Part shown: positions 8,938 through 51,900 of the stretch, in pieces | Layout: each line of letters starts with the position of its first letter | Position numbering within the stretch: the stretch's first letter is position 1 | NCBI GenBank assembly: GCA_964455705.1 | Contig: CAYVYM010000009.1 | Coordinates: 20,846 to 84,845 of the forward strand | Direction of reading: 5' to 3' | Source: an uncultured Rikenella sp. | GTDB taxonomy: Bacteria > Bacteroidota > Bacteroidia > Bacteroidales > VadinHA17 | Length of the DNA stretch: 64,000 nt | Notes under the pieces: generated by a model | Told to the model about the DNA's origin: nothing | The model's database searches: none | The model's input: the letters and a program-made list of their open reading frames with translations, nothing else | Position numbers and translations under genes: made by a program

Positions 8938-11004
8938 ATGAAAAAACTTGCTATTCTCTCAATTGCACTTCTCCTGGCCTGCCTGGGTGCGTGCAAAAAT
9001 GAAAAAACTGAAAAAACCGTGGCGGAGGTCATCAATGTGTCACTTACAGAGGCTGAAAAGGCCGGAGGAGTCCTGACCCCTGAAATACTCTGGAAATACG
9101 GCCGCATAGGATCTATAGTGCTGTCACTTGATGGCGCAACGGTTCTCTATACCGTCACGCATTACGATCTTGCAACTGAAACAAGGATGACAAATATTTA
9201 TTCAATAGCCTCTACAGGAGGAACACCCGTACAATTGACAACTGACGGAGGGTCAGGTCCGCAGTGGATAGACAACGGATCAGCGATAGCATACCTTGCC
9301 GGAGGAAAGATAATGACCATGAAACCTGACGGCACTGCAAAGAAGGAGATAACGGGATTGCAGGACTTTGAGATACTCACCTTCTCCCCGGCCGGGGACA
9401 TGGTCTATTTCACCCGGCGCATCAAGCTAGACCAGACTGCAAATGAGAAATATGACCTCCCCAATGCAAAGGTCCGTATTATAGACGACCTGATGTACAG
9501 GCACTGGAACTACTGGCACGATTACTCCTACAGCCATCTGTTCACAGCCTCCTTCGACGGTGTGGCAATAAGCGGTGAAAAGGATATCATGGAGGGTCAA
9601 CGGTTTGATACCCCTGATGCGCCCTGGTTTGATGAGGCAGATATCAGCTGGAGCCCTGACGGGAAATACATAGCCTATGCCTGCAAGAAGCTGACGGGAA
9701 AGGCCTATTCGCTTAGCACGAATACTGACATCTATCTTTATGATGTCACAACCGGGGCAGAGAAAAACATCACTGAAGGAAACATGGGTTACGATAAATC
9801 CCCCGTCTTCTCTCCTGACGGGTCGATGATAGCTTATGCGAGCATGGAAGAGGGCGGTTACGAGTCGGACCTCGAAAGGTTGTTCGTTTACAATATTGCC
9901 AGAGGTGAACGCAGTTGGGTCTCCGAGGGTTGGGATTACAATGTTGGAAACATACAGTGGCACGGAACCGGTGAGATATGGTTCACCAGCCCGTACCGCG
10001 GCACACAGCCCATATTTAAGATATCGCTCGCATCAGGTAGCATAACTAGTGTATCCAAGGGTGACTATGACATGGGACCGCTGCAACTGAAGAACGGAGT
10101 GCTTGTATCAGGTATGATGTCAATGTCGAGACCGACGGAAGTGGCTGCAGTGAATTTGTCAACCGGAGAATTTAACTTGATAACTGATGTAAACGGCCAC
10201 ATCTACGAGAGCATAAAGATGGGCAAGACAGAGGAGCGCTATACGAAGACAACGGATGGCAAGGACCTCCAGAGCTGGATCATCTATCCGCCTGATTTTG
10301 ATCCTTCTAATAAATACCCCACGCTGCTTTACTGCAAGGGCGGTCCACAGGGATCACTGGGTCAGGGATGGAGCTATCGCTGGAACTACCAGATGATGGC
10401 TGCCAACGGTTATATTGTTGTGGCCGTCAACCGGCGCGGTAATTCGGGTTTCGGGAGCTACTGGCGCGAGCAGATCTCCGGTGATTACGGTGGCAGGAAC
10501 ATGCAGGATTACCTTGATGCCATTGACGCCATGGCGAAGGAGCCGTATGTGGATAAGGACCGGCTGGGTGCCGTGGGAGCCAGCTATGGCGGGTACTCGG
10601 TCTTCTACCTGGCCGGGATGCATGACAAACGGTTCAAGGCATTCGTGTCTCACTGCGGCGTTTATAATACAATTGCCGAGTATGGCTCCACCGAGGAGTA
10701 CTGGTATCCGAACAAGGATTACCAGGGAGCACCGTGGGACAAGCCGCAGCCTCCAGGATACAATAAGTTCTCACCCCACACAATGGTCGACAAATGGGAT
10801 ACGCCCATCCTGATCATAACGGGTGCAAACGACTTTCGTATACCCTACAGCCAGAGTCTCGAGGCGTTCAACTCAGCGCAGCTTCGCGGCGTGCCCAGCA
10901 GATTACTCTTCTTCGAGAATGAGAGTCACTGGGTCACCAGGCCCCAGAACGCCGTGATTTGGCAGAAGGAGTATTTCGAATTCCTGGATACCTATCTGAA
11001 ATAG
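8938..11004 (+). CDS. S9 family serine peptidase (prolyl oligopeptidase/dipeptidyl peptidase type) lipoprotein
   Basis: Lipoprotein signal (LLACLGACKNE). N-terminal beta-propeller with WSPDGKYIAY and FSPDGSMIAY. C-terminal alpha/beta hydrolase with the nucleophile motif GASYGGY. Confidence 0.85.
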   Translation: MKKLAILSIALLLACLGACKNEKTEKTVAEVINVSLTEAEKAGGVLTPEILWKYGRIGSIVLSLDGATVLYTVTHYDLATETRMTNIYSIASTGGTPVQLTTDGGSGPQWIDNGSAIAYLAGGKIMTMKPDGTAKKEITGLQDFEILTFSPAGDMVYFTRRIKLDQTANEKYDLPNAKVRIIDDLMYRHWNYWHDYSYSHLFTASFDGVAISGEKDIMEGQRFDTPDAPWFDEADISWSPDGKYIAYACKKLTGKAYSLSTNTDIYLYDVTTGAEKNITEGNMGYDKSPVFSPDGSMIAYASMEEGGYESDLERLFVYNIARGERSWVSEGWDYNVGNIQWHGTGEIWFTSPYRGTQPIFKISLASGSITSVSKGDYDMGPLQLKNGVLVSGMMSMSRPTEVAAVNLSTGEFNLITDVNGHIYESIKMGKTEERYTKTTDGKDLQSWIIYPPDFDPSNKYPTLLYCKGGPQGSLGQGWSYRWNYQMMAANGYIVVAVNRRGNSGFGSYWREQISGDYGGRNMQDYLDAIDAMAKEPYVDKDRLGAVGASYGGYSVFYLAGMHDKRFKAFVSHCGVYNTIAEYGSTEEYWYPNKDYQGAPWDKPQPPGYNKFSPHTMVDKWDTPILIITGANDFRIPYSQSLEAFNSAQLRGVPSRLLFFENESHWVTRPQNAVIWQKEYFEFLDTYLK

Positions 11005-11032
11005 GCAATAGGCAGTAGGTAGTAGGCAATAG
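11004..11032 (+). repeat. TAG-rich heptamer module (GGCAATAGGCAGTAGGTAGTAGGCAATAG), second copy
   Basis: 28 of 29 nt match the reverse complement of 389-417. Both copies abut or overlap the stop codon of the upstream gene in the same relative orientation. TAG occurs in all three frames. Confidence 0.75.
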
Positions 11033-11160: not shown

Positions 11161-12027
11161 TTAAAAGCCACTGTCTAATCTATTCCAGATAGCCTTCATT
11201 GAATTGCTTATTTCTGCTTCAGGATACATCTCGGTAATGGTTTTACCAGCCACCATCGCCTCCGTTACCCGCCTGTCAAAGGGCAAACGTCCGAGCAGAG
11301 TACTTCCCTGTGCTGCACTCCAGCCCTCGATCCTGTCAGCCATGGCTTCATTCAGGTCATACTTGTTAATTATAATTCCCACCTCACCGCTGAATTTGCG
11401 TGCCACTTCGTGAACTCTCTTCAGGTCGGCCAGTCCTGACATGGTAGGTTCGGTAACGATAACGATCCGGTCAACACCCGTTACTGTTGAGATCACCGGG
11501 CATCCTATTCCCGGAGGGCCGTCAAGCAGAAGGTTATCTATCCCCTTTTCTGCAGCAACCCTCCTCGCCTCATCCCTCACCATGCTGACGAGCTTACCCG
11601 AGTTCTCCTCTCCCGGCGCCAGGCGGCCGTAGACCATCATGCCGTTGCGGAACGGGCCTGAGTACATCCGACTACTGTCGCTTCGTACCATTGTGATGGC
11701 ATTCATAGGACATATACGTGAACAAAAAAAGCATCCGTCACATGATGTCTCCGAGATGACTATCTTACCCTCTTTTTCACTTATGGCATCAAACCGGCAG
11801 TATCCCTCGCAGATGCCGCATACGGTACACAGAGTATGGTCTACCACAGCCTTATGACCTCCAATATAGACCACTACCTTCTCATGTTCCGGGGTGAAAA
11901 GAAGGTAGAGATTGGCGGCATCCACATCACAGTCGGCCACCACCAGCTCCTGCCCGAGTGTCGCAAAAGCAGCTGTGATACTTGATTTTCCCGTGCCTCC
12001 CTTACCGCTGATTACTGCCAGTTCCAT
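11161..12027 (-). CDS. MinD/ParA-superfamily P-loop ATPase with inserted 2x[4Fe-4S] ferredoxin domain (COG1149-like)
   Basis: Deviant Walker A GKGGTGKS at the N-terminus. Cys clusters CTVCGICEGYC and CDGCFFCSRICP. Paralogous to the adjacent gene. Confidence 0.85.
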   Translation of the reverse strand: MELAVISGKGGTGKSSITAAFATLGQELVVADCDVDAANLYLLFTPEHEKVVVYIGGHKAVVDHTLCTVCGICEGYCRFDAISEKEGKIVISETSCDGCFFCSRICPMNAITMVRSDSSRMYSGPFRNGMMVYGRLAPGEENSGKLVSMVRDEARRVAAEKGIDNLLLDGPPGIGCPVISTVTGVDRIVIVTEPTMSGLADLKRVHEVARKFSGEVGIIINKYDLNEAMADRIEGWSAAQGSTLLGRLPFDRRVTEAMVAGKTITEMYPEAEISNSMKAIWNRLDSGF

Positions 12028-12874
12028 GTTTATCTATTAGTTTGTATGCAAGCTCAGTGAAGAGTCCGGCTAATACCTTGTTTTCACCGGCAGCCATCCT
12101 TCCCTCCGAATATGCCCTTGCAATCTCATGATCATAGTTTATCTCCGCCAGCAACGGAATCTTTTCTTCTTCAAGGTACTTTTTCACGCTGGCGTCTCCG
12201 ATATCAGCACGGTTGATGATCACGCTGCATGCTTTGTTCATCGTCCTCAGTGTCTCCACACTTTGTTTCAGGTCGCTCAACCCGAAGGGAGTCGGTTCAG
12301 TCACCAGTAATATATGGTCAGACTTGTCTACGGTCTGCACAAAGGGGCATGATGTACCGGGCGGTGAGTCCAGGATAGTTACTCCTTCGTTGCCCGCCTT
12401 ATTTATCGCGGCTTTTATAACCCTCACCGGGGACATCTCGTTCACTCTCATACGGGCTTCGATGAGCGGAGCTTTTCCTGATATCTTATATGAAGTAACC
12501 GCTCCCAGTACAACGGGCTTTTCAGTGATGGCGCCGGCGTTGCACGCGAAACTGCATGCCCCGCAGCCGTGACACAGGTTCTCTATCACCTCAATCACTT
12601 TCGCCGACGGGACATAAAAGATAGCGTTGTAGTTGCACCACATACTGCAACGACCGCACCATTTACATGCATCCTTATTGATTACGGGAACCTGATGTGT
12701 CACCTCCGATTCGGAGACCTTCTCAGCCTTAAAGAAAATGAGATCATCCGGCGCCTCTGCGTCACAGTCGACCAGTGTGACCCTGTCGCCACGTTCTGAT
12801 AACACATGGAATAAGTTGGTGGCTACAAAGGTTTTTCCTGTACCCCCTTTGCCGCTTGCAACAGCTATCTTCAT
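12002..12874 (-). CDS. MinD/ParA-superfamily P-loop ATPase with inserted 4Fe-4S ferredoxin domain (paralog)
   Basis: GKGGTGKT Walker A. Cys clusters CKWCGRCSMWC and CHGCGACSFAC. 26-nt overlap with the downstream paralog. Confidence 0.85.
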   Translation of the reverse strand: MKIAVASGKGGTGKTFVATNLFHVLSERGDRVTLVDCDAEAPDDLIFFKAEKVSESEVTHQVPVINKDACKWCGRCSMWCNYNAIFYVPSAKVIEVIENLCHGCGACSFACNAGAITEKPVVLGAVTSYKISGKAPLIEARMRVNEMSPVRVIKAAINKAGNEGVTILDSPPGTSCPFVQTVDKSDHILLVTEPTPFGLSDLKQSVETLRTMNKACSVIINRADIGDASVKKYLEEEKIPLLAEINYDHEIARAYSEGRMAAGENKVLAGLFTELAYKLIDKHGTGSNQR

Positions 12875-12885
12875 TTGTTGAGCTT

Positions 12886-13329
12886 CTAGTCGTAAGTAAG
12901 CCTGGTAATCTCGTCAGCCAGGGTTGGTTTGATAAACCTCTGCATGGCTGCACCTTTCCAGGTACCAAGATTCATGTGAGTAGTGTAATATTTCTGCGGG
13001 ATCGGATGAGTGCCGACAACCACCTCAATGCCATATTTCTCGGGGATGAACCTGGTGAAGTAGTCGAGCCTGGGGCAGGGCGGATAACCTACAACGAGGC
13101 CCGTGGCCAGGTGAATGACGCTTACCCCGTTTTTAATCATCTCCTCAGGGGTATACTCAACGTTTCCGCCAGGGCATCCTCCACATGTTGTGAAGGCTGC
13201 CACCTCTATATCCTGATCCTTATATCTGTCGAAGGCACCCTCGCGGTTGCGGACGGATCTGAAGCACTTGCCACCGGCACATGCGGAATACCGGTCACAT
13301 ATGATTATACCTATCCTTTTCTTTTCCAT
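12886..13329 (-). CDS. CGGC domain-containing protein
   Basis: 147 aa with ..FTTCGGCPGGN.. (the eponymous CGGC motif) and further conserved Cys residues (ICDRYSACAGGKC). Confidence 0.75.
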   Translation of the reverse strand: MEKKRIGIIICDRYSACAGGKCFRSVRNREGAFDRYKDQDIEVAAFTTCGGCPGGNVEYTPEEMIKNGVSVIHLATGLVVGYPPCPRLDYFTRFIPEKYGIEVVVGTHPIPQKYYTTHMNLGTWKGAAMQRFIKPTLADEITRLTYD

Positions 13330-13338
13330 GACATTCTG

Positions 13339-13677
13339 TTAATGGTCACAATAATTTGCTCCGGCCTGCAGCTTATCGTTAAGCAGGTCTGTTGCAAGCT
13401 CGTCCGGACTTTTAACCGGTGCTCCGACAAAGACATTTATTGAATGCTGATTGAAAAGGCCTATGGCCCTTTGTCCCATGCCCCCTGCAATGACATCAGT
13501 CACCCCTTTTTCTGCCAGCCATCCGGGAAGCAGTCCCGGCTCATGAGGTGGAGGCGTGATGAGAGTTTCAGATGTTATTGACTTGTCCTCGGCATCTACA
13601 ATTGCGAACTGCTCGCAGTGGCCGAAATGAGAGCAAAGGATTCCTCCCTCAAGGGGAATTGCTATACGTTTCTTCAT
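13339..13677 (-). CDS. NifB/NifX-family (MTH1175-like) small cofactor-binding protein
   Basis: 112 aa. HFGHCEQFAIVD motif and a ..VIAGGMGQRA.. segment typical of the dinitrogenase FeMo-cofactor-binding fold family. Confidence 0.8.
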   Translation of the reverse strand: MKKRIAIPLEGGILCSHFGHCEQFAIVDAEDKSITSETLITPPPHEPGLLPGWLAEKGVTDVIAGGMGQRAIGLFNQHSINVFVGAPVKSPDELATDLLNDKLQAGANYCDH

Positions 13678-13685
13678 GTTCTAAG

Positions 13686-14003
13686 TTATTTATTCAACAT
13701 ATCAATTACTGACTGAACCGTCTTTTCCGGCTCCCTGTAAACAACCATCTGGATTTTCAGGCTGTCAAGGAGCGACTTGATCTTCACCCCGAACTCGCCG
13801 GAGATAATCTTCTTCACTTCCTTTGATGCCACCAACTGAACCGATGCCGGTCCGGCTCCCTCCTCGGCATCCTTGTTCGGGTTTGGAAGGATCTCAACCC
13901 CTCCTGTCTCTGTGTCATAGATAACAAAGAACGCGCAGCGGCCGAACCGCTGATCGAGATTGCTTTCAAGGCTTTGCCCTGTACTTGTTATCGCTACTTT
14001 CAT
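13686..14003 (-). CDS. NifB/NifX-family (MTH1175-like) small protein, paralog
   Basis: 105 aa. RFGRCAFFVIYD motif. Same fold family as the adjacent gene. Confidence 0.8.
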   Translation of the reverse strand: MKVAITSTGQSLESNLDQRFGRCAFFVIYDTETGGVEILPNPNKDAEEGAGPASVQLVASKEVKKIISGEFGVKIKSLLDSLKIQMVVYREPEKTVQSVIDMLNK

Positions 14004-14412
14004 ATTTTCTTATTGTTTCAGATCTTCCGCAAAGTGGGCATTCAGAAGGCTCAACAATCTTTTCCGGCTGGTTGAATAAACAGTTACACCCGTTGCATTT
14101 ATACCACTCGCTGTCAAAATATATCTTTCCACCTTCAATTATTAACTGCTTCCCGTTGACGATAGCATCGGCAATCCTGGCCCTGGCTTTCGCGTAGATT
14201 CGGGTAAGGGTAGGACGCGAGACATCCATCACCCGGGCAGCCTCATGATGATTCATATTCTCAAAATCACAAAGCCTGATCACCTCATACTCCTCGAGGT
14301 GCAGAAAGACTGACTGAGGTTGCTCATTCTTAGCTGTCCCCCCGTAAGGTCTGAAACCTGATACAAGTGGCGGATTACTTACCCTCCTTAATCTCTTCGG
14401 TCGTGGTGACAC
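13966..14412 (-). CDS. DUF134/UPF0251 putative DNA-binding protein with C-terminal zinc-ribbon-like extension
   Basis: N-terminus MSPRPKRLRRVSNPPLVSGFRPYG and an HTH-like HHEAARVMDVSRPTLTRIY are typical of UPF0251. The C-terminus carries CNGCNC...CPLCG. Confidence 0.8.
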   Translation of the reverse strand: MSPRPKRLRRVSNPPLVSGFRPYGGTAKNEQPQSVFLHLEEYEVIRLCDFENMNHHEAARVMDVSRPTLTRIYAKARARIADAIVNGKQLIIEGGKIYFDSEWYKCNGCNCLFNQPEKIVEPSECPLCGRSETIRKYESSDNKYRAKP

Positions 14413-14433
14413 TTTTTGATCATTTGCTCGTTA

Positions 14434-14441: not shown

Positions 14442-14644
14442 ATGAACTTATGATCATAATGTATAATCCTCACTAATTTTCTACCGAATTAATTTTATGG
14501 GGACAGACTTTGCCCGATTTCAGGCAGTTGTACACTAAGGCATCATCTGGGTACCGGACTGGGCCCAGTTTCAGGTGAATATTGGAGCTATGACTCTGCG
14601 GAGAAAATCTCAATATTCTCATTATAATTGCGGCGATTAATTTG

Positions 14645-14673: not shown

Positions 14674-15768
14674 ATGAATAAATATATTTATCAATATGGA
14701 CAGTGGCCACATTTCACATGGGATGACAAGGAAGTAAATGGAATTTTAGGAAGAGTACGCCATCTGCAGGGAAAGATCATGGGACAAATGGCGTCCCTGG
14801 GCTTTTCCATGAAAGAAGAAGCCCTGCTATCCACCCTGACAACTGATGTCATTAAATCATCTGAGATAGAGGGTGAAACATTGAACTATGAGCAGGTACG
14901 TTCCTCAATTGCAAGAAGATTGGGGATGGAATATGCCGGTATGACACCGGCAACAAGAGATGTTGACGGCGTGGTTGAAATGATGCTGGATGCAACACAG
15001 AATTATGAAGAACAACTGACCGAAGAACGGCTGTTCGGATGGCATGCTGCATTATTCCCATCGGGTTGGAGTGGTATGCAACGGATAGATTCCGGATGCT
15101 ATCGCAAGGGAATAATGCAGGTGGTTTCCGGCCCCATGGGTAAAGAAAAGATCCATTACCTTGCCCCCGCGCCAGAGAGAGTGAAACAGGAAATGGATCT
15201 ATTCCTGGAATGGTTTAATGCTGAATCAAAACAAGATGCTGTATTAAAAGCAGCCATATCGCATTTCTGGTTTATAATTATACATCCTTTCGATGACGGC
15301 AATGGTCGTATTGCGAGGACGCTCTCTGATATGTTATTGGCACGTTCTGAAGACAGCTCACAAAGATTTTATAGTCTCTCGAACCAGGTACTGATTGAGA
15401 AAAAAGGTTATTACGCAGTATTACAAAAAGTTCAGCATAGCAACGGAGATATTACTGAATGGCTGAACTGGTTCCTGAATTGTCTGCATCATGCATTGGA
15501 ATCAACAGAAAAAACAATGTTCAAAGTGCTTCAAAAAGCAGATTTCTGGGATAGACATAAAGAGACCTTGCTAAATAGAAGGCAGAGACTCATGCTGAAC
15601 AAACTTCTGGATGGGTTTGATGGAAAACTACGAACATCAAAATGGACTAAAATCACTAAATGCTCAGCTGACACAGCGTTAAGAGACATCAAAGATTTAA
15701 TTGACAAAGGCATATTGAGAAAAGAAAAATCAGGAGGAAGAAGTACAAATTATGAAGTAATTGATTAA
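14674..15768 (+). CDS. Fic family protein (AMPylase-type), class II with N-terminal inhibitory helix and C-terminal winged-helix domain
   Basis: Fic active-site motif HPFDDGNGRIAR (HxFx[D/E]GNGRxxR). The upstream inhibitory motif SSEIEG fits [S/T]xxxE[G/N]. ~364 aa architecture like SoFic-type proteins. Confidence 0.9.
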   Translation: MNKYIYQYGQWPHFTWDDKEVNGILGRVRHLQGKIMGQMASLGFSMKEEALLSTLTTDVIKSSEIEGETLNYEQVRSSIARRLGMEYAGMTPATRDVDGVVEMMLDATQNYEEQLTEERLFGWHAALFPSGWSGMQRIDSGCYRKGIMQVVSGPMGKEKIHYLAPAPERVKQEMDLFLEWFNAESKQDAVLKAAISHFWFIIIHPFDDGNGRIARTLSDMLLARSEDSSQRFYSLSNQVLIEKKGYYAVLQKVQHSNGDITEWLNWFLNCLHHALESTEKTMFKVLQKADFWDRHKETLLNRRQRLMLNKLLDGFDGKLRTSKWTKITKCSADTALRDIKDLIDKGILRKEKSGGRSTNYEVID

Positions 15769-48912: not shown

Positions 48913-51900
48913 TTAATATTTGATCACCAGATCAACAGGTACCTCCCCGACTGCTATCTCCCCTTCATTGAAATCCGTTAACTCCTTACCGTTGACTGAT
49001 ATCGCCGATGGCATTTTTCCCCCGTTGAAATTCCTTATTTTGATACCCCCTTCCGGCAGATCTATATCACCAGATATGGAAAAATGGTAACTGTTGCCCT
49101 CCTTCTTAATCGAGTAGGATATCTCACCGTAATATGTAGGCAGGTTTTCAACCGACATCCCCTCAGGAGCGTCAATCCAATCCTGGTACAGGCCAGATGC
49201 AAGAACGAGAGTATGGTCATACTCGTTTTCATATACAAACATGGACCTTACGGCATTGATAAAGTCACTCCCGCACCAGGTATGGGGCATGTCTCCTATA
49301 AATCCGGGATGACGATAGTCATTCCACACCACCTCAGCCCAGTGATGCCACCCGCCGGCTGGCGGGCGCTGATCAGCAAGGAAGTATTCAATCAGCTCAT
49401 GTGCCCTCTCCGGCTGGTCAAGCATAATGAATGAGCCTATCAGGCGATTTTCATAAGGAGTATAATTGACCCACTCTCTCCTGCCATCCCTCCTGTCGAG
49501 GAAAAAGGCGTAGTACTTCTCAAAGGTGTTGTAAACCTGCGGAACAGGAAGGTTATGCAGCTCATTGCACGGGGTTAGTGCGATGGTGGTTGATGTCGCA
49601 TCGAAGTCGCCAAGCTCCACACACCCGGGGATGTAATCTATTTTCCTGACCTTCATGGCCAGACGAAGAGAGTTGTATAGATTTACACGGAATGTGTCCC
49701 TGATGCCGGCAATCTTCCGGTAATTTTCACTCTCTCCCAGGATCTTCTGTATTTCAGCTGCATCCTTCAGTCCTTTCATTGTAAAAAAGTTATCCCAGTA
49801 TGAGTGCATGGGTTTGGCTGAGTAGCCTTCATGGCTGATTGACTCGGGCACCAGACCATAGTAAGCACGGATACTGTCATTCCCGAACCGGAAGTGATCC
49901 GTTGATCTTTCCGCAACCAGCGACTCAAAATAGTCAACTGCTTTCAGAACGTTGTCATTTCTTGTTCTCAGAAAAACGGTGTCGCCGGTGAAATTGAAAT
50001 ACTCACGGATCAGGTATATCAGCTCGCCGTGACTGTCGTGCTCAGGCACCGGGTCCGGACCTCTTGAATCAACAACACATGGCACCTTGCCGTTCTCATA
50101 CTGGAACGACGAATACCAGTCTGTAAAATCTCTTACCTCCTCAACAATTCCTGATTTGAGCAGTGCTGATGATGTCAGGGATCCGTCGCGAATCCAGCTC
50201 CGTTCATAAGAACGTGACCCTGGCTGGATGCCAACCTTATCCCTGTTGATCAGGATATAGACAAGATTTGATTTCCAGGTATCTATGATCCTGTCACCCG
50301 AAGGGGGCAGATTCAACCGGATGTGATCCGTTTTCGTCCTCCAGAAATCGGCCGCACGGTAGAAGGCGCCAGGAATATCTTTGACATCCATACTTCCTTC
50401 CAACGACTCTCTGCCATGATATGGGACTGCGGCAAAGAATTCTGCCTTTTCACCGGCCTCAAGGTGAATTGAATAATTCATAACGCCGTTTGCCATTCCG
50501 GCCTTATCGCTGGCTGATTTGCCCGGAGGTATACTTCCGTTACGCAGCCAGTCCACGAGGTTGCCCTCATCGAAAACAGCTGCACCGAAAGAATCATACG
50601 CTCTGGTCATAACGATGACCTTGTCATCAACCGCAATCCGGCCCCCGGCTTCTTCATTTATGTTGTTGATTCTCCCGCTTCCGCCTATTGTGTTGAGGAA
50701 CTGGTAATAGGGATTCACCTGGAACGGGCGTACCAGCAGGTAAAACTCAAAATCAACAGGCCGGTCCGAGAGATTTTCAAACGAGTAACCGATATAGAGC
50801 AGGGAATTCACATTGGCAGTGCCACCTGATGCCACTCCCGTGGAAAACTTCAGCCCGCCGTGCTGCCATGTTACTGACGGGACGAAGTCAGTCTCACCGG
50901 CAGCTCCCGGAAAAATCATCGACTGTACCGGATCCGAATTGCTCCAGTTTACCAGGGAATCGCCTACTCTCAGCATCGGCTCAATTGAAAAGAGCGACTT
51001 GTCAACTTCAACCATCCCCGATTCGTTGATCAGAGCCTCCTTTGTGTCATTATTAACGCCCGTAACAGTCCAGTACGTTGCCCGTTCCGAGAAGTACTCG
51101 GGATAATTGCCTGCCGGTGAATTCTTTGCACAGTATATCAGGAAATCATTGGGTGTTTTGGTGTTGCTCACATCCGGAAATTCGATTTCTTTAATACCGA
51201 ATGTGCCGTCCTCTGCGGGTTCTGCCATTTCCAGCCTGAGATACCTCGCCTCCGCTTCGGGAAGTCTTACAAAGCTTACCTTTCCCCTGTTGGAAGAAAC
51301 AGAATATGCTTTTTCCCAGCTCCTGTTGTCATCTGACAGGTAAATCTCAAAACTTCCTGCCTGATGACCTTCCAGCCACCTGATCTGAACTCCTCCGAAT
51401 TCCCTTCTCTCCTTGAAATCAACCGTAATATCTGCGCTCTTCGCTTTGCGGCTTTGCCAGAATGTGTCATCAGAGCCGTCAGCTATCATGCCTGGCAAAA
51501 GCTTCCTGGCTGATGATGAAGCTGACAGTGCCGGCGCCGGCCATGAATGCTTTTCAGGCTTCAGGGGCTCAAACCTGAGGTCATCTATCCAAAGCGTGCC
51601 TCTGCCGCCGACAAATGACGCAACGGTAAACTCTATCCGGTCAAAACGGTCTGGCTGCCGGCCCTCCGATGGCCCCCATGCAAACTCAATATGACGCTTC
51701 TTTATGCGGATCTTTTTCCACTCTCCGGGAAAGGAGTAGTTACGGTTATTGACCCACCACACATTATTCCCGGTGCTGTCAATGAACTTAATCTCAAAGT
51801 TATTGGAAGGTGACTCAGCCTTCAGCCAGAATGTAAACTCATAGTTTTCAGGGAGCTCCAACGGGAAGAGCTTCTGGATCCCCCCATATCCGGACCCCTT

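Follow-up and report, generated by a model that had tools for sequence, protein, structure and literature searches.

The closest described system to the locus analysed here is the orange protein (ORP) complex of Desulfovibrio vulgaris, which consists of the paralogous ATPases Orp3 and Orp4, both with a pair of 4Fe-4S motifs, together with Orp5, Orp8 and Orp9 (PMC6345978). Orp8 is of the orange-protein type, and Orp9, also called MrpORP, joins an Mrp/NBP35 NTPase to a 'Di-Nase' domain, whose CxHFGHCE and CDH motifs were proposed as likely cluster ligands; Orp4 and Orp8 co-purify with Orp3, and MrpORP is able to pass Fe-S clusters to Orp3, Orp4 and Orp8 (PMC6345978). Transcription of the orp genes is switched with redox potential by OrpR, an Fe-S-containing sigma54 activator that is confined to Deltaproteobacteria (PMC8359166). 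The ORP genes are among the most widely conserved anaerobe-specific gene sets of still unknown function; only the Desulfovibrio version has been studied, and our literature searches found no bacterial ORP papers after 2021. Here, we analysed a six-gene operon (positions 11161-14412) in a 64,000-nucleotide (nt) stretch of DNA, referred to below as the window, which comprises positions 20,846-84,845 of the forward strand of contig CAYVYM010000009.1 (assembly GCA_964455705.1) of an uncultured Rikenella sp. (VadinHA17). The host is a soil Rikenellaceae-type bacterium, and a metagenome sequence search found identical DNA in soil metagenomes. With a probability of about 0.7, we regard the six genes as a single transcription unit encoding a reduced Bacteroidales version of the anaerobe ORP metal-sulfur system, in which a DUF134 protein would repress its own operon and a heterodimer of two ATPases would handle the cluster.

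All six open reading frames (ORFs) of the operon lie on the minus strand. The first (14412-13966, 148 amino acids) encodes a DUF134/UPF0251 protein (PF02001, 1.3e-23; Sigma70_r4, 2.5e-5). It is followed by the genes of two NifX-like proteins, NifXa with an RFGRC motif (14003-13686, 105 amino acids; PF02579, 5e-16) and NifXb with an HFGHC motif (13677-13339, 112 amino acids; PF02579, 3e-16; NCBIfam MrpORP, 2e-35), by that of a CGGC-domain protein (13329-12886, 147 amino acids; PF08821, 2e-29), and by those of two paralogous P-loop ATPases of the same architecture, each with a ferredoxin insert: ATPase 1 (12874-12002, 290 amino acids) and ATPase 2 (12027-11161, 288 amino acids). The DUF134 and NifXa genes overlap by 38 nt and the two ATPase genes by 26 nt, and the spacers between the remaining genes are 8, 9 and 11 nt. 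An earlier note on this DNA had described these gene positions, overlaps, gaps and domains, including a putative UPF0251 regulator, two NifX-fold proteins with the motifs given above, a CGGC protein, and two MinD-type ATPases with inserted ferredoxin domains. All of this was reproduced exactly by the ORF list and by Pfam and NCBIfam profiles, which upheld all six domain assignments, and the profile search proposed in that note matched PF02001, PF02579 twice, and PF08821.

The operon shares with the ORP genes of D. vulgaris Hildenborough two adjacent paralogous ATPases with two 4Fe-4S motifs each, built like Orp3 and Orp4, a single-domain orange-protein-type PF02579 protein (NifXa here, Orp8 there), a PF02579 domain with the CxHFGHCE and CDH motifs, which in NifXb is 50% identical to that of Orp9, and the occurrence in anaerobes. 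However, the D. vulgaris genes form two divergent operons, whereas here there is one. The sigma54 promoter, OrpR and IHF of D. vulgaris are missing here, where a Bacteroidetes -7 box, a DUF134 gene and two palindromes are present instead, and no enhancer-binding-protein gene adjoins the operon. Moreover, in place of a fused MrpORP the operon has the Di-Nase part alone, with the Mrp domain not in the 64-kb window, and it includes a CGGC protein. The locus is thus a variant of the ORP-type system, in that its family is known, DUF134 and CGGC are added, and the fused MrpORP and the sigma54/OrpR control are missing. The gain is incremental, as the family assignment follows from existing knowledge; what appears to be new here, as judged from the sequences, is the argument for an ATPase heterodimer, the split or absent Mrp, the DUF134 promoter module, and a CGGC protein that is predicted to fold confidently and lacks a solved relative. 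Core ORP parts, then, also occur as a simpler single operon in many Bacteroidales.

With NifXb as the anchor, a search of one genome per species matched 167 genomes, and the best 80 of them were analysed. Nearly all of these 80 are metagenome-assembled genomes from Bacteroidales (uncultured Rikenellaceae or others), with one carrying the label Ignavibacteria and another that of Oscillospiraceae (possibly mis-binned). BLASTP searches against the window proteins, supplemented by some extra neighbours, served to classify the ORFs of all loci, and counts were taken from the 53 loci of other species with enough flank; as the loci were picked via NifXb, the figures are conditional on its presence. 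The gene order appeared to be near-universal, recurring in about 50/53 loci: DUF134, NifXa, [DUF5320], NifXb, [DUF89/ARMT1-like], [radical SAM], [CGGC], ATPase 1, ATPase 2, [Mrp], where brackets mark the genes that come and go. NifXa was present in 53/53 loci, DUF134 in 52/53 (as the first gene), and both ATPases in 50/53, followed by Mrp (42/53), CGGC (36/53), DUF5320 (29/53), and radical SAM and DUF89 genes (24/53 each). The six-gene arrangement is not a product of chance, as the same order is found in dozens of species-level genomes. The form seen in the window, which has neither Mrp nor DUF5320, is minimal and common only to a few close relatives (loci L007 and L022). The nearest relatives are 86-92% identical at the DNA level and have syntenic flanks, with an S9 peptidase gene on one side and a lactonase gene on the other; in the window the operon is flanked by S9 peptidase, Fic and lactonase genes.

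Clusters from other phyla were drawn from an annotated plasmid collection. In Peptoclostridium acidaminophilum (Clostridia), the annotation reads DUF134, NifB/NifX family, ATP-binding, ATP-binding, and 'iron-sulfur cluster carrier protein MrpORP', and a Chloroflexota record reads NifX, ATPase, ATPase, DUF59, beside a divergent HTH regulator and DUF5320. The partnership of DUF134 with these genes therefore extends beyond Bacteroidota, in Peptoclostridium next to a named MrpORP. The earlier note had staked its ORP-like reading on conserved co-occurrence of the families, and they do recur together, in the 53 related loci and in the Clostridia record; this recurrence, the 50% identity of NifXb to Orp9, the match of NifXa to the D. 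gigas ORP structure and the Orp3/Orp4 build of the ATPases all support that reading. The same note had called the DUF134 and CGGC partners and the Bacteroidota setting unstudied. In line with this, literature searches turned up no study of DUF134 or CGGC in such a setting.

By their motifs and matches, NifXa and NifXb represent two distinct subtypes. NifXa is of the MTH1175/orange-protein (Orp8-like) subtype with its RFGRC motif, and phmmer matched it to the PDB entries 1RDU (6e-15), 1EO1 (2e-10) and 2WFB (D. gigas ORP, 4.7e-7); TM1816, MTH1175 and the D. gigas protein are its nearest relatives of solved structure. The search of PDB with NifXb gave no match to TM1816, MTH1175 or 2WFB. Its sequence pattern is CSHFGHCE...PPPHEPG...GGMG...CDH, with CSHFGHCE near the start and CDH as the last three residues. 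NifXb matches positions 264-364 of the NCBIfam MrpORP model (NF041136) with an E value of 2e-35, and shares 50% identity (E 5e-38) with the C-terminal domain of Orp9/MrpORP from D. vulgaris (DVU2109; sequence taken from Fig. S5 of PMC6345978), with both CxHFGHCE and CDH kept. Its identity to the C-terminus of the Peptoclostridium MrpORP is 41%. By these alignments, NifXb corresponds to the C-terminal Di-Nase domain of MrpORP, encoded as a protein of its own. The Mrp gene of related loci, in turn, matches positions 2-252 of the same model (2e-79), indicating that Bacteroidales encode MrpORP as two genes, of which the window keeps the small half. In contrast to the family defined by NF041136, the Mrp and Di-Nase parts are thus unfused in relatives, with the C-terminal part alone in the window, and neither part reaches the 450-bit equivalog cut-off. 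No Mrp gene was found within the 64-kb window, so that the Mrp carrier appears dispensable within the operon, in the window as in those relatives that lack it.

Both ATPases are CbiA/ParA-type P-loop ATPases of the MinD/Mrp class and contain a double 4Fe-4S ferredoxin module as an insert; they are about 30% identical to each other. Both have a deviant Walker A motif, GKGGTGK[TS] (GKGGTGKT in ATPase 1). When 73 sequences of each paralogue were aligned, members from Clostridia and Chloroflexota included, ten cysteines were kept in 71-73/73 sequences overall and in 72-73/73 for ATPase 1. Eight of them are ferredoxin ligands, one lies in D-C-D after strand 2, and one in PPGxxCP, seven residues past the Walker B aspartate; in ATPase 1 the two invariant cysteines outside the ferredoxin module are C37 and C176. 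The spacing of the PPGxxCP cysteine matches that of the NifH cluster ligand Cys132, and we treat it as a lead only. A HMMER pass over 1.84 billion cluster representatives returned 533 clusters at E<=1e-30, and many of the best matches were proteins of about 600 amino acids with two matched stretches. In one such fusion, P0123, the N-terminal half is nearest to ATPase 1 and the C-terminal half to ATPase 2. P0123 and about 30 further matches are single-chain ATPase1-like/ATPase2-like fusions of about 600 amino acids, with the modules in gene order. These natural fusions, the constant adjacency of the two genes and their 20-26-nt overlaps argue that the paralogues would work as a heterodimer, and the deviant Walker A in both counts in favour of the same arrangement. 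SIMIBI-class metallocentre ATPases (the reductases NifH/BchL/CfbC; the insertases Mrp/Nbp35, CooC, HypB) share the deviant Walker A dimer fold, but the window ATPases differ from them in that a ferredoxin domain follows switch I as an insert, and by the predicted pairing of paralogues.

The CGGC protein scored 102.2 bits against PF08821 (gathering cut-off 27). Its motif C49-G-G-C52 is invariant among homologues, as are six cysteines and three histidines in all, and more than 8000 homologues were found, with about 70% identity across phyla. The AlphaFold model is an alpha/beta fold with a pLDDT of 94.8. The protein has no PDB match by sequence, and Foldseek of the model against PDB gave nothing significant: the best hit (E 6e-3, TM ~0.4) fell among generic flavodoxin-like folds. 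An MvhD-like [2Fe-2S] fold, which we had considered, is unsupported, as Foldseek returned only these generic alpha/beta matches. CGGC is predicted to be a metal- or Fe-S-binding subunit.

The promoter of the operon contains a perfect Bacteroidetes -7 box (TAnnTTTG), TATATTTG, at 14441-14434 on the minus strand, 29 nt 5' of the GTG start codon of the DUF134 gene. The box is flanked by two operator-like palindromes of the TGAWC-N4-GWTCA type on the same strand. Palindrome 1, TGATCATAAGTTCA (14443-14456), abuts the box on its upstream side, and palindrome 2, CGAGCAAATGATCA (14417-14430), covers the expected transcription start between the box and the start codon. When 74 orthologous DUF134 upstream regions were aligned on the -7 box, the promoter-operator module appeared near-invariant over 51 nt, TGTATTATGAACATATGTTCATTATCTTTGTAGTGAACAATTGATCATAAT, with two palindromes of 14 bp, the first ending at the box and the second starting just beyond it. 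In all these promoters the -7 box, which the earlier note had pointed out in the window, lies 29-32 nt before the start codon, and palindrome 1 keeps its position. The counterpart of palindrome 2 in the module consensus reads ...TTTGTAGTGAACAATTGATCATAAT. Within the 64-kb window, palindrome 1 is the sole exact intergenic match to the consensus and also has the top position weight matrix (PWM) score. The PWM of the whole module gave 67 bits at the operon promoter and a negative score at the next unrelated site, and no further convincing operator site was found in the window (next best PWM score 10 vs. 29 for the operon site). A second exact match to TGAWC-N4-GWTCA, TGATCACCAGATCA at 48921-48934, stands without the surrounding promoter module and is probably due to chance. 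A Rex-type operator is considered unlikely, given the half-site spacing of the Rex consensus.

In relatives, perfect TGAACATATGTTCA sites together with a -7 box also precede DUF5320 genes, second DUF134 copies and an MBL-fold gene. Their recurrence is far above chance for a 14-mer in 1.35 Mb, which suggests a broader DUF134 regulon in relatives that is missing from the window. The loci in question are L034, L035, L036, L048, L050, L052, L053, L057, L062, L063, L067 and L080; the genes downstream of the sites encode glycine/arginine-rich DUF5320 proteins (MPGGDRTGPMGQGPxTGRG...), and in some loci a second DUF134 or an MBL-fold protein. The DUF134 gene of Peptoclostridium is preceded by two similar, CATATG-centred sites.

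The DUF134 protein itself scored 83.8 bits against PF02001 (gathering cut-off 27) and combines a helix-turn-helix resembling sigma-70 region 4 with a Cys4 ribbon at the C-terminus (C106, C109, C125, C128), whose residues are kept in 71-72/72 orthologues. The GTG start is backed by the conserved N-terminus of the orthologues, MSPRPKR, and a sequence search found no relative in PDB. About half of the orthologues (in loci L005-L084) have 194 amino acids, with a second Cys-rich C-terminal extension that the 148-residue window protein does not have. As the DUF134 gene is the common denominator of the palindrome sites, its product is the best candidate to bind them, and the positions of the palindromes around the -7 box and the expected start predict repression. 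Thus, DUF134 is most likely an autoregulator, predicted from these arrangements to repress the operon via both palindromes. OrpR uses an Fe-S cluster to sense redox potential (PMC8359166); by analogy, the Cys4 ribbon of DUF134 could be a metal or redox sensor, and it could equally be a structural zinc site. Like OrpR, DUF134 would be a dedicated regulator encoded with its system, with cysteines that could hold a metal centre. In contrast to the PAS-AAA+-HTH architecture of OrpR, however, it belongs to an unrelated helix-turn-helix family, and the operator positions predict a repressor and not an enhancer-binding activator. From the conserved promoter module, autoregulation by DUF134 is predicted here instead of the sigma54/OrpR control, with one regulator and two palindromes over the promoter as its very compact replacement.

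Transcription of such operons was supported by two metatranscriptomes, from sediment and ice, with contigs 85-95% identical to the operon and covering 11.2-14.46 kb of the window. They span the CGGC/ATPase 1 and NifXb/CGGC junctions and end before 14471. The exact window sequence was found in DNA metagenomes only, and both metatranscriptomes hold only relatives. Orthologous operons are therefore transcribed in nature, and the contigs of relatives weakly support the transcript boundaries in the window. At the 3' end of the operon, RNA folding (centroid) predicted a weak terminator-like hairpin on the minus strand (~11117-11082), AU-rich and followed by a U-rich tail, UUUAUAA, 44 nt past the last stop codon. 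The terminator hairpin named in the earlier note was therefore recovered in the predicted fold, but the generic terminator scan made no call at this end and the folding z-score of the region was only -0.97, so that it is the weakest element of the unit. Generic scans for sigma70 promoters and for terminators gave no useful information on this Bacteroidetes-type promoter.

From the anatomy described above we infer the following chemistry. ATPase 1 and ATPase 2 would form an ATP-dependent heterodimer, which would hold the NifX-fold proteins and CGGC, as Orp3, Orp4 and Orp8 are held together in Desulfovibrio. Under anoxic conditions the complex would receive, hold or pass on an Fe-S or heterometal-sulfur cluster. 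Transcription would start from the Bacteroidetes -7 box flanked on both sides by the TGAWC-N4-GWTCA palindromes; DUF134 would bind both sites as a dimer and repress its own operon, with the Cys4 ribbon as a possible metal or redox input, and would so take over the part played in Deltaproteobacteria by the sigma54 activator OrpR. If so, DUF134 gains a concrete candidate DNA target, and the five structural proteins make a minimal set for co-expression.

Several points weigh against this explanation and have been counted in the probability of about 0.7 given above. All six proteins are known here from sequence alone, and the function of ORP is itself unsettled, with the Desulfovibrio literature suggesting a link to cell division (PMC8359166). 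The operon does without the Mrp ATPase carried by 42/53 relatives, and a cluster donor is thus not apparent. CGGC is missing from a third of the related loci and stands alone in Sabulitectum; such a patchy and at times solitary protein may not be an obligate subunit. The palindrome 2 of the window departs from TGAWC-N4-GWTCA at two positions, the pairing of DUF134 with the palindromes rests on association, and a different regulator could bind them. Finally, the RNA contigs stem from relatives, and assembled contigs may include DNA. Three other explanations were weighed and are less well supported than an ORP-type system for handling clusters.

The first is storage or detoxification of iron-sulfur or thiometallate species, in which thioferrate-like or Mo/W/Cu-sulfide species would be bound up by the NifX-fold proteins, with the ATPases serving to load or unload them. 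PF02579 proteins do hold such species, as exemplified by the Mo-Cu cluster of the orange protein, seen in vitro, and the thioferrate of Pyrococcus IssA (cited in PMC6345978), related loci adjoin Fur-family, rubrerythrin and peroxidase genes, and genes of the orp region of D. alaskensis respond strongly to copper-surface stress (PMC10533852). The latter paper also contains a hint that Dde_3197 may be more similar to a NifX-like protein than to CGGC. However, the cationic C-terminal tail ascribed to IssA is absent from both NifX-like proteins, the ligand-type Cys/His motifs of NifXb are common to an Fe-S carrier domain, and no transporter or metal-sensor gene is linked to the operon in the window. 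We consider storage unlikely. Similarly improbable, in our judgement, is that the ATPases are primarily positioning or cell-division factors, a role proposed for the Desulfovibrio Orp proteins, whose activity is tuned to the redox state by metal-binding partners. The MinD-type deviant Walker A is present in both, the archaeal MinD model matched them at 1e-15 to 1e-21 (below the cut-off of that model), and the Desulfovibrio papers report morphological defects on loss of orp expression, polar localisation of MrpORP, and predicted membrane-targeting helices in Orp3 and Orp4 (PMC6345978, PMC8359166). Against these stand scores of only 40-46 bits with the minD_bact model for both ATPases (cut-off 213), the lack of minC and minE in the operon and its flanks, and the description of the role as 'still unclear' by the Desulfovibrio authors themselves (PMC8359166). 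Moreover, the ten invariant cysteines per ATPase point to cluster chemistry, as does the constant association with genes for NifX-fold, Mrp, radical-SAM and CGGC proteins. A role as nitrogenase cofactor accessory factors, similar to NifX, NafY or NifH, is hinted at by the Pfam family name Nitro_FeMo-Co and by weak Fer4_NifH matches, but is highly improbable, as the NifH equivalog model gave 33.6 bits (cut-off 394) and nifHDK, nifEN or nifB occur neither in the operon, nor among the flanking genes, nor as recurrent partners in the 53 loci, in agreement with the statement of the earlier note that this is not nitrogen fixation.

Beyond the reduced ORP system itself, we would offer a wider generalisation only tentatively, as we think it rather doubtful. 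DUF134 proteins would be widespread Cys4 metal- or redox-sensing repressors that control non-deltaproteobacterial ORP-type genes via TGAWC-N4-GWTCA. On this view, the operon studied here, in which genes for Mrp, DUF5320, radical-SAM and DUF89 proteins are missing, would be the minimal working core (ATPase heterodimer, two NifX-fold proteins and CGGC) of an orphan ATP-driven pathway for making or delivering a metal-sulfur cofactor.

Some observations concern the surroundings of the cluster. In a Tenuifilaceae locus (L001 1-3408), it adjoins genes of a Fur-family regulator, a catalase-peroxidase, a rubrerythrin/ferritin-like protein and a peroxiredoxin, and in Peptoclostridium it adjoins hemerythrin and DUF1858 genes; the oxidative-stress or iron context of these two clusters is worth a systematic count. 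In the window, a Fic-family gene (14674-15768) diverges from the operon promoter. It is present at the same position in L007 and L022 and absent there in L005, L006, L008, L009, L011 and L012, which makes it a recent insertion separating the operon from the lactonase gene. At the other end, a tandem array of the heptamer AATAGGC (4.7 copies, 11000-11032) fills the spacer that separates the end of the operon from the convergent S9 peptidase gene. In L009, L016, L049 and L067, short arrays of a similar G/C-rich, heptamer-like kind occur upstream of the DUF134 promoter, and similar arrays were also seen in the loose ends of the metatranscriptome contigs.

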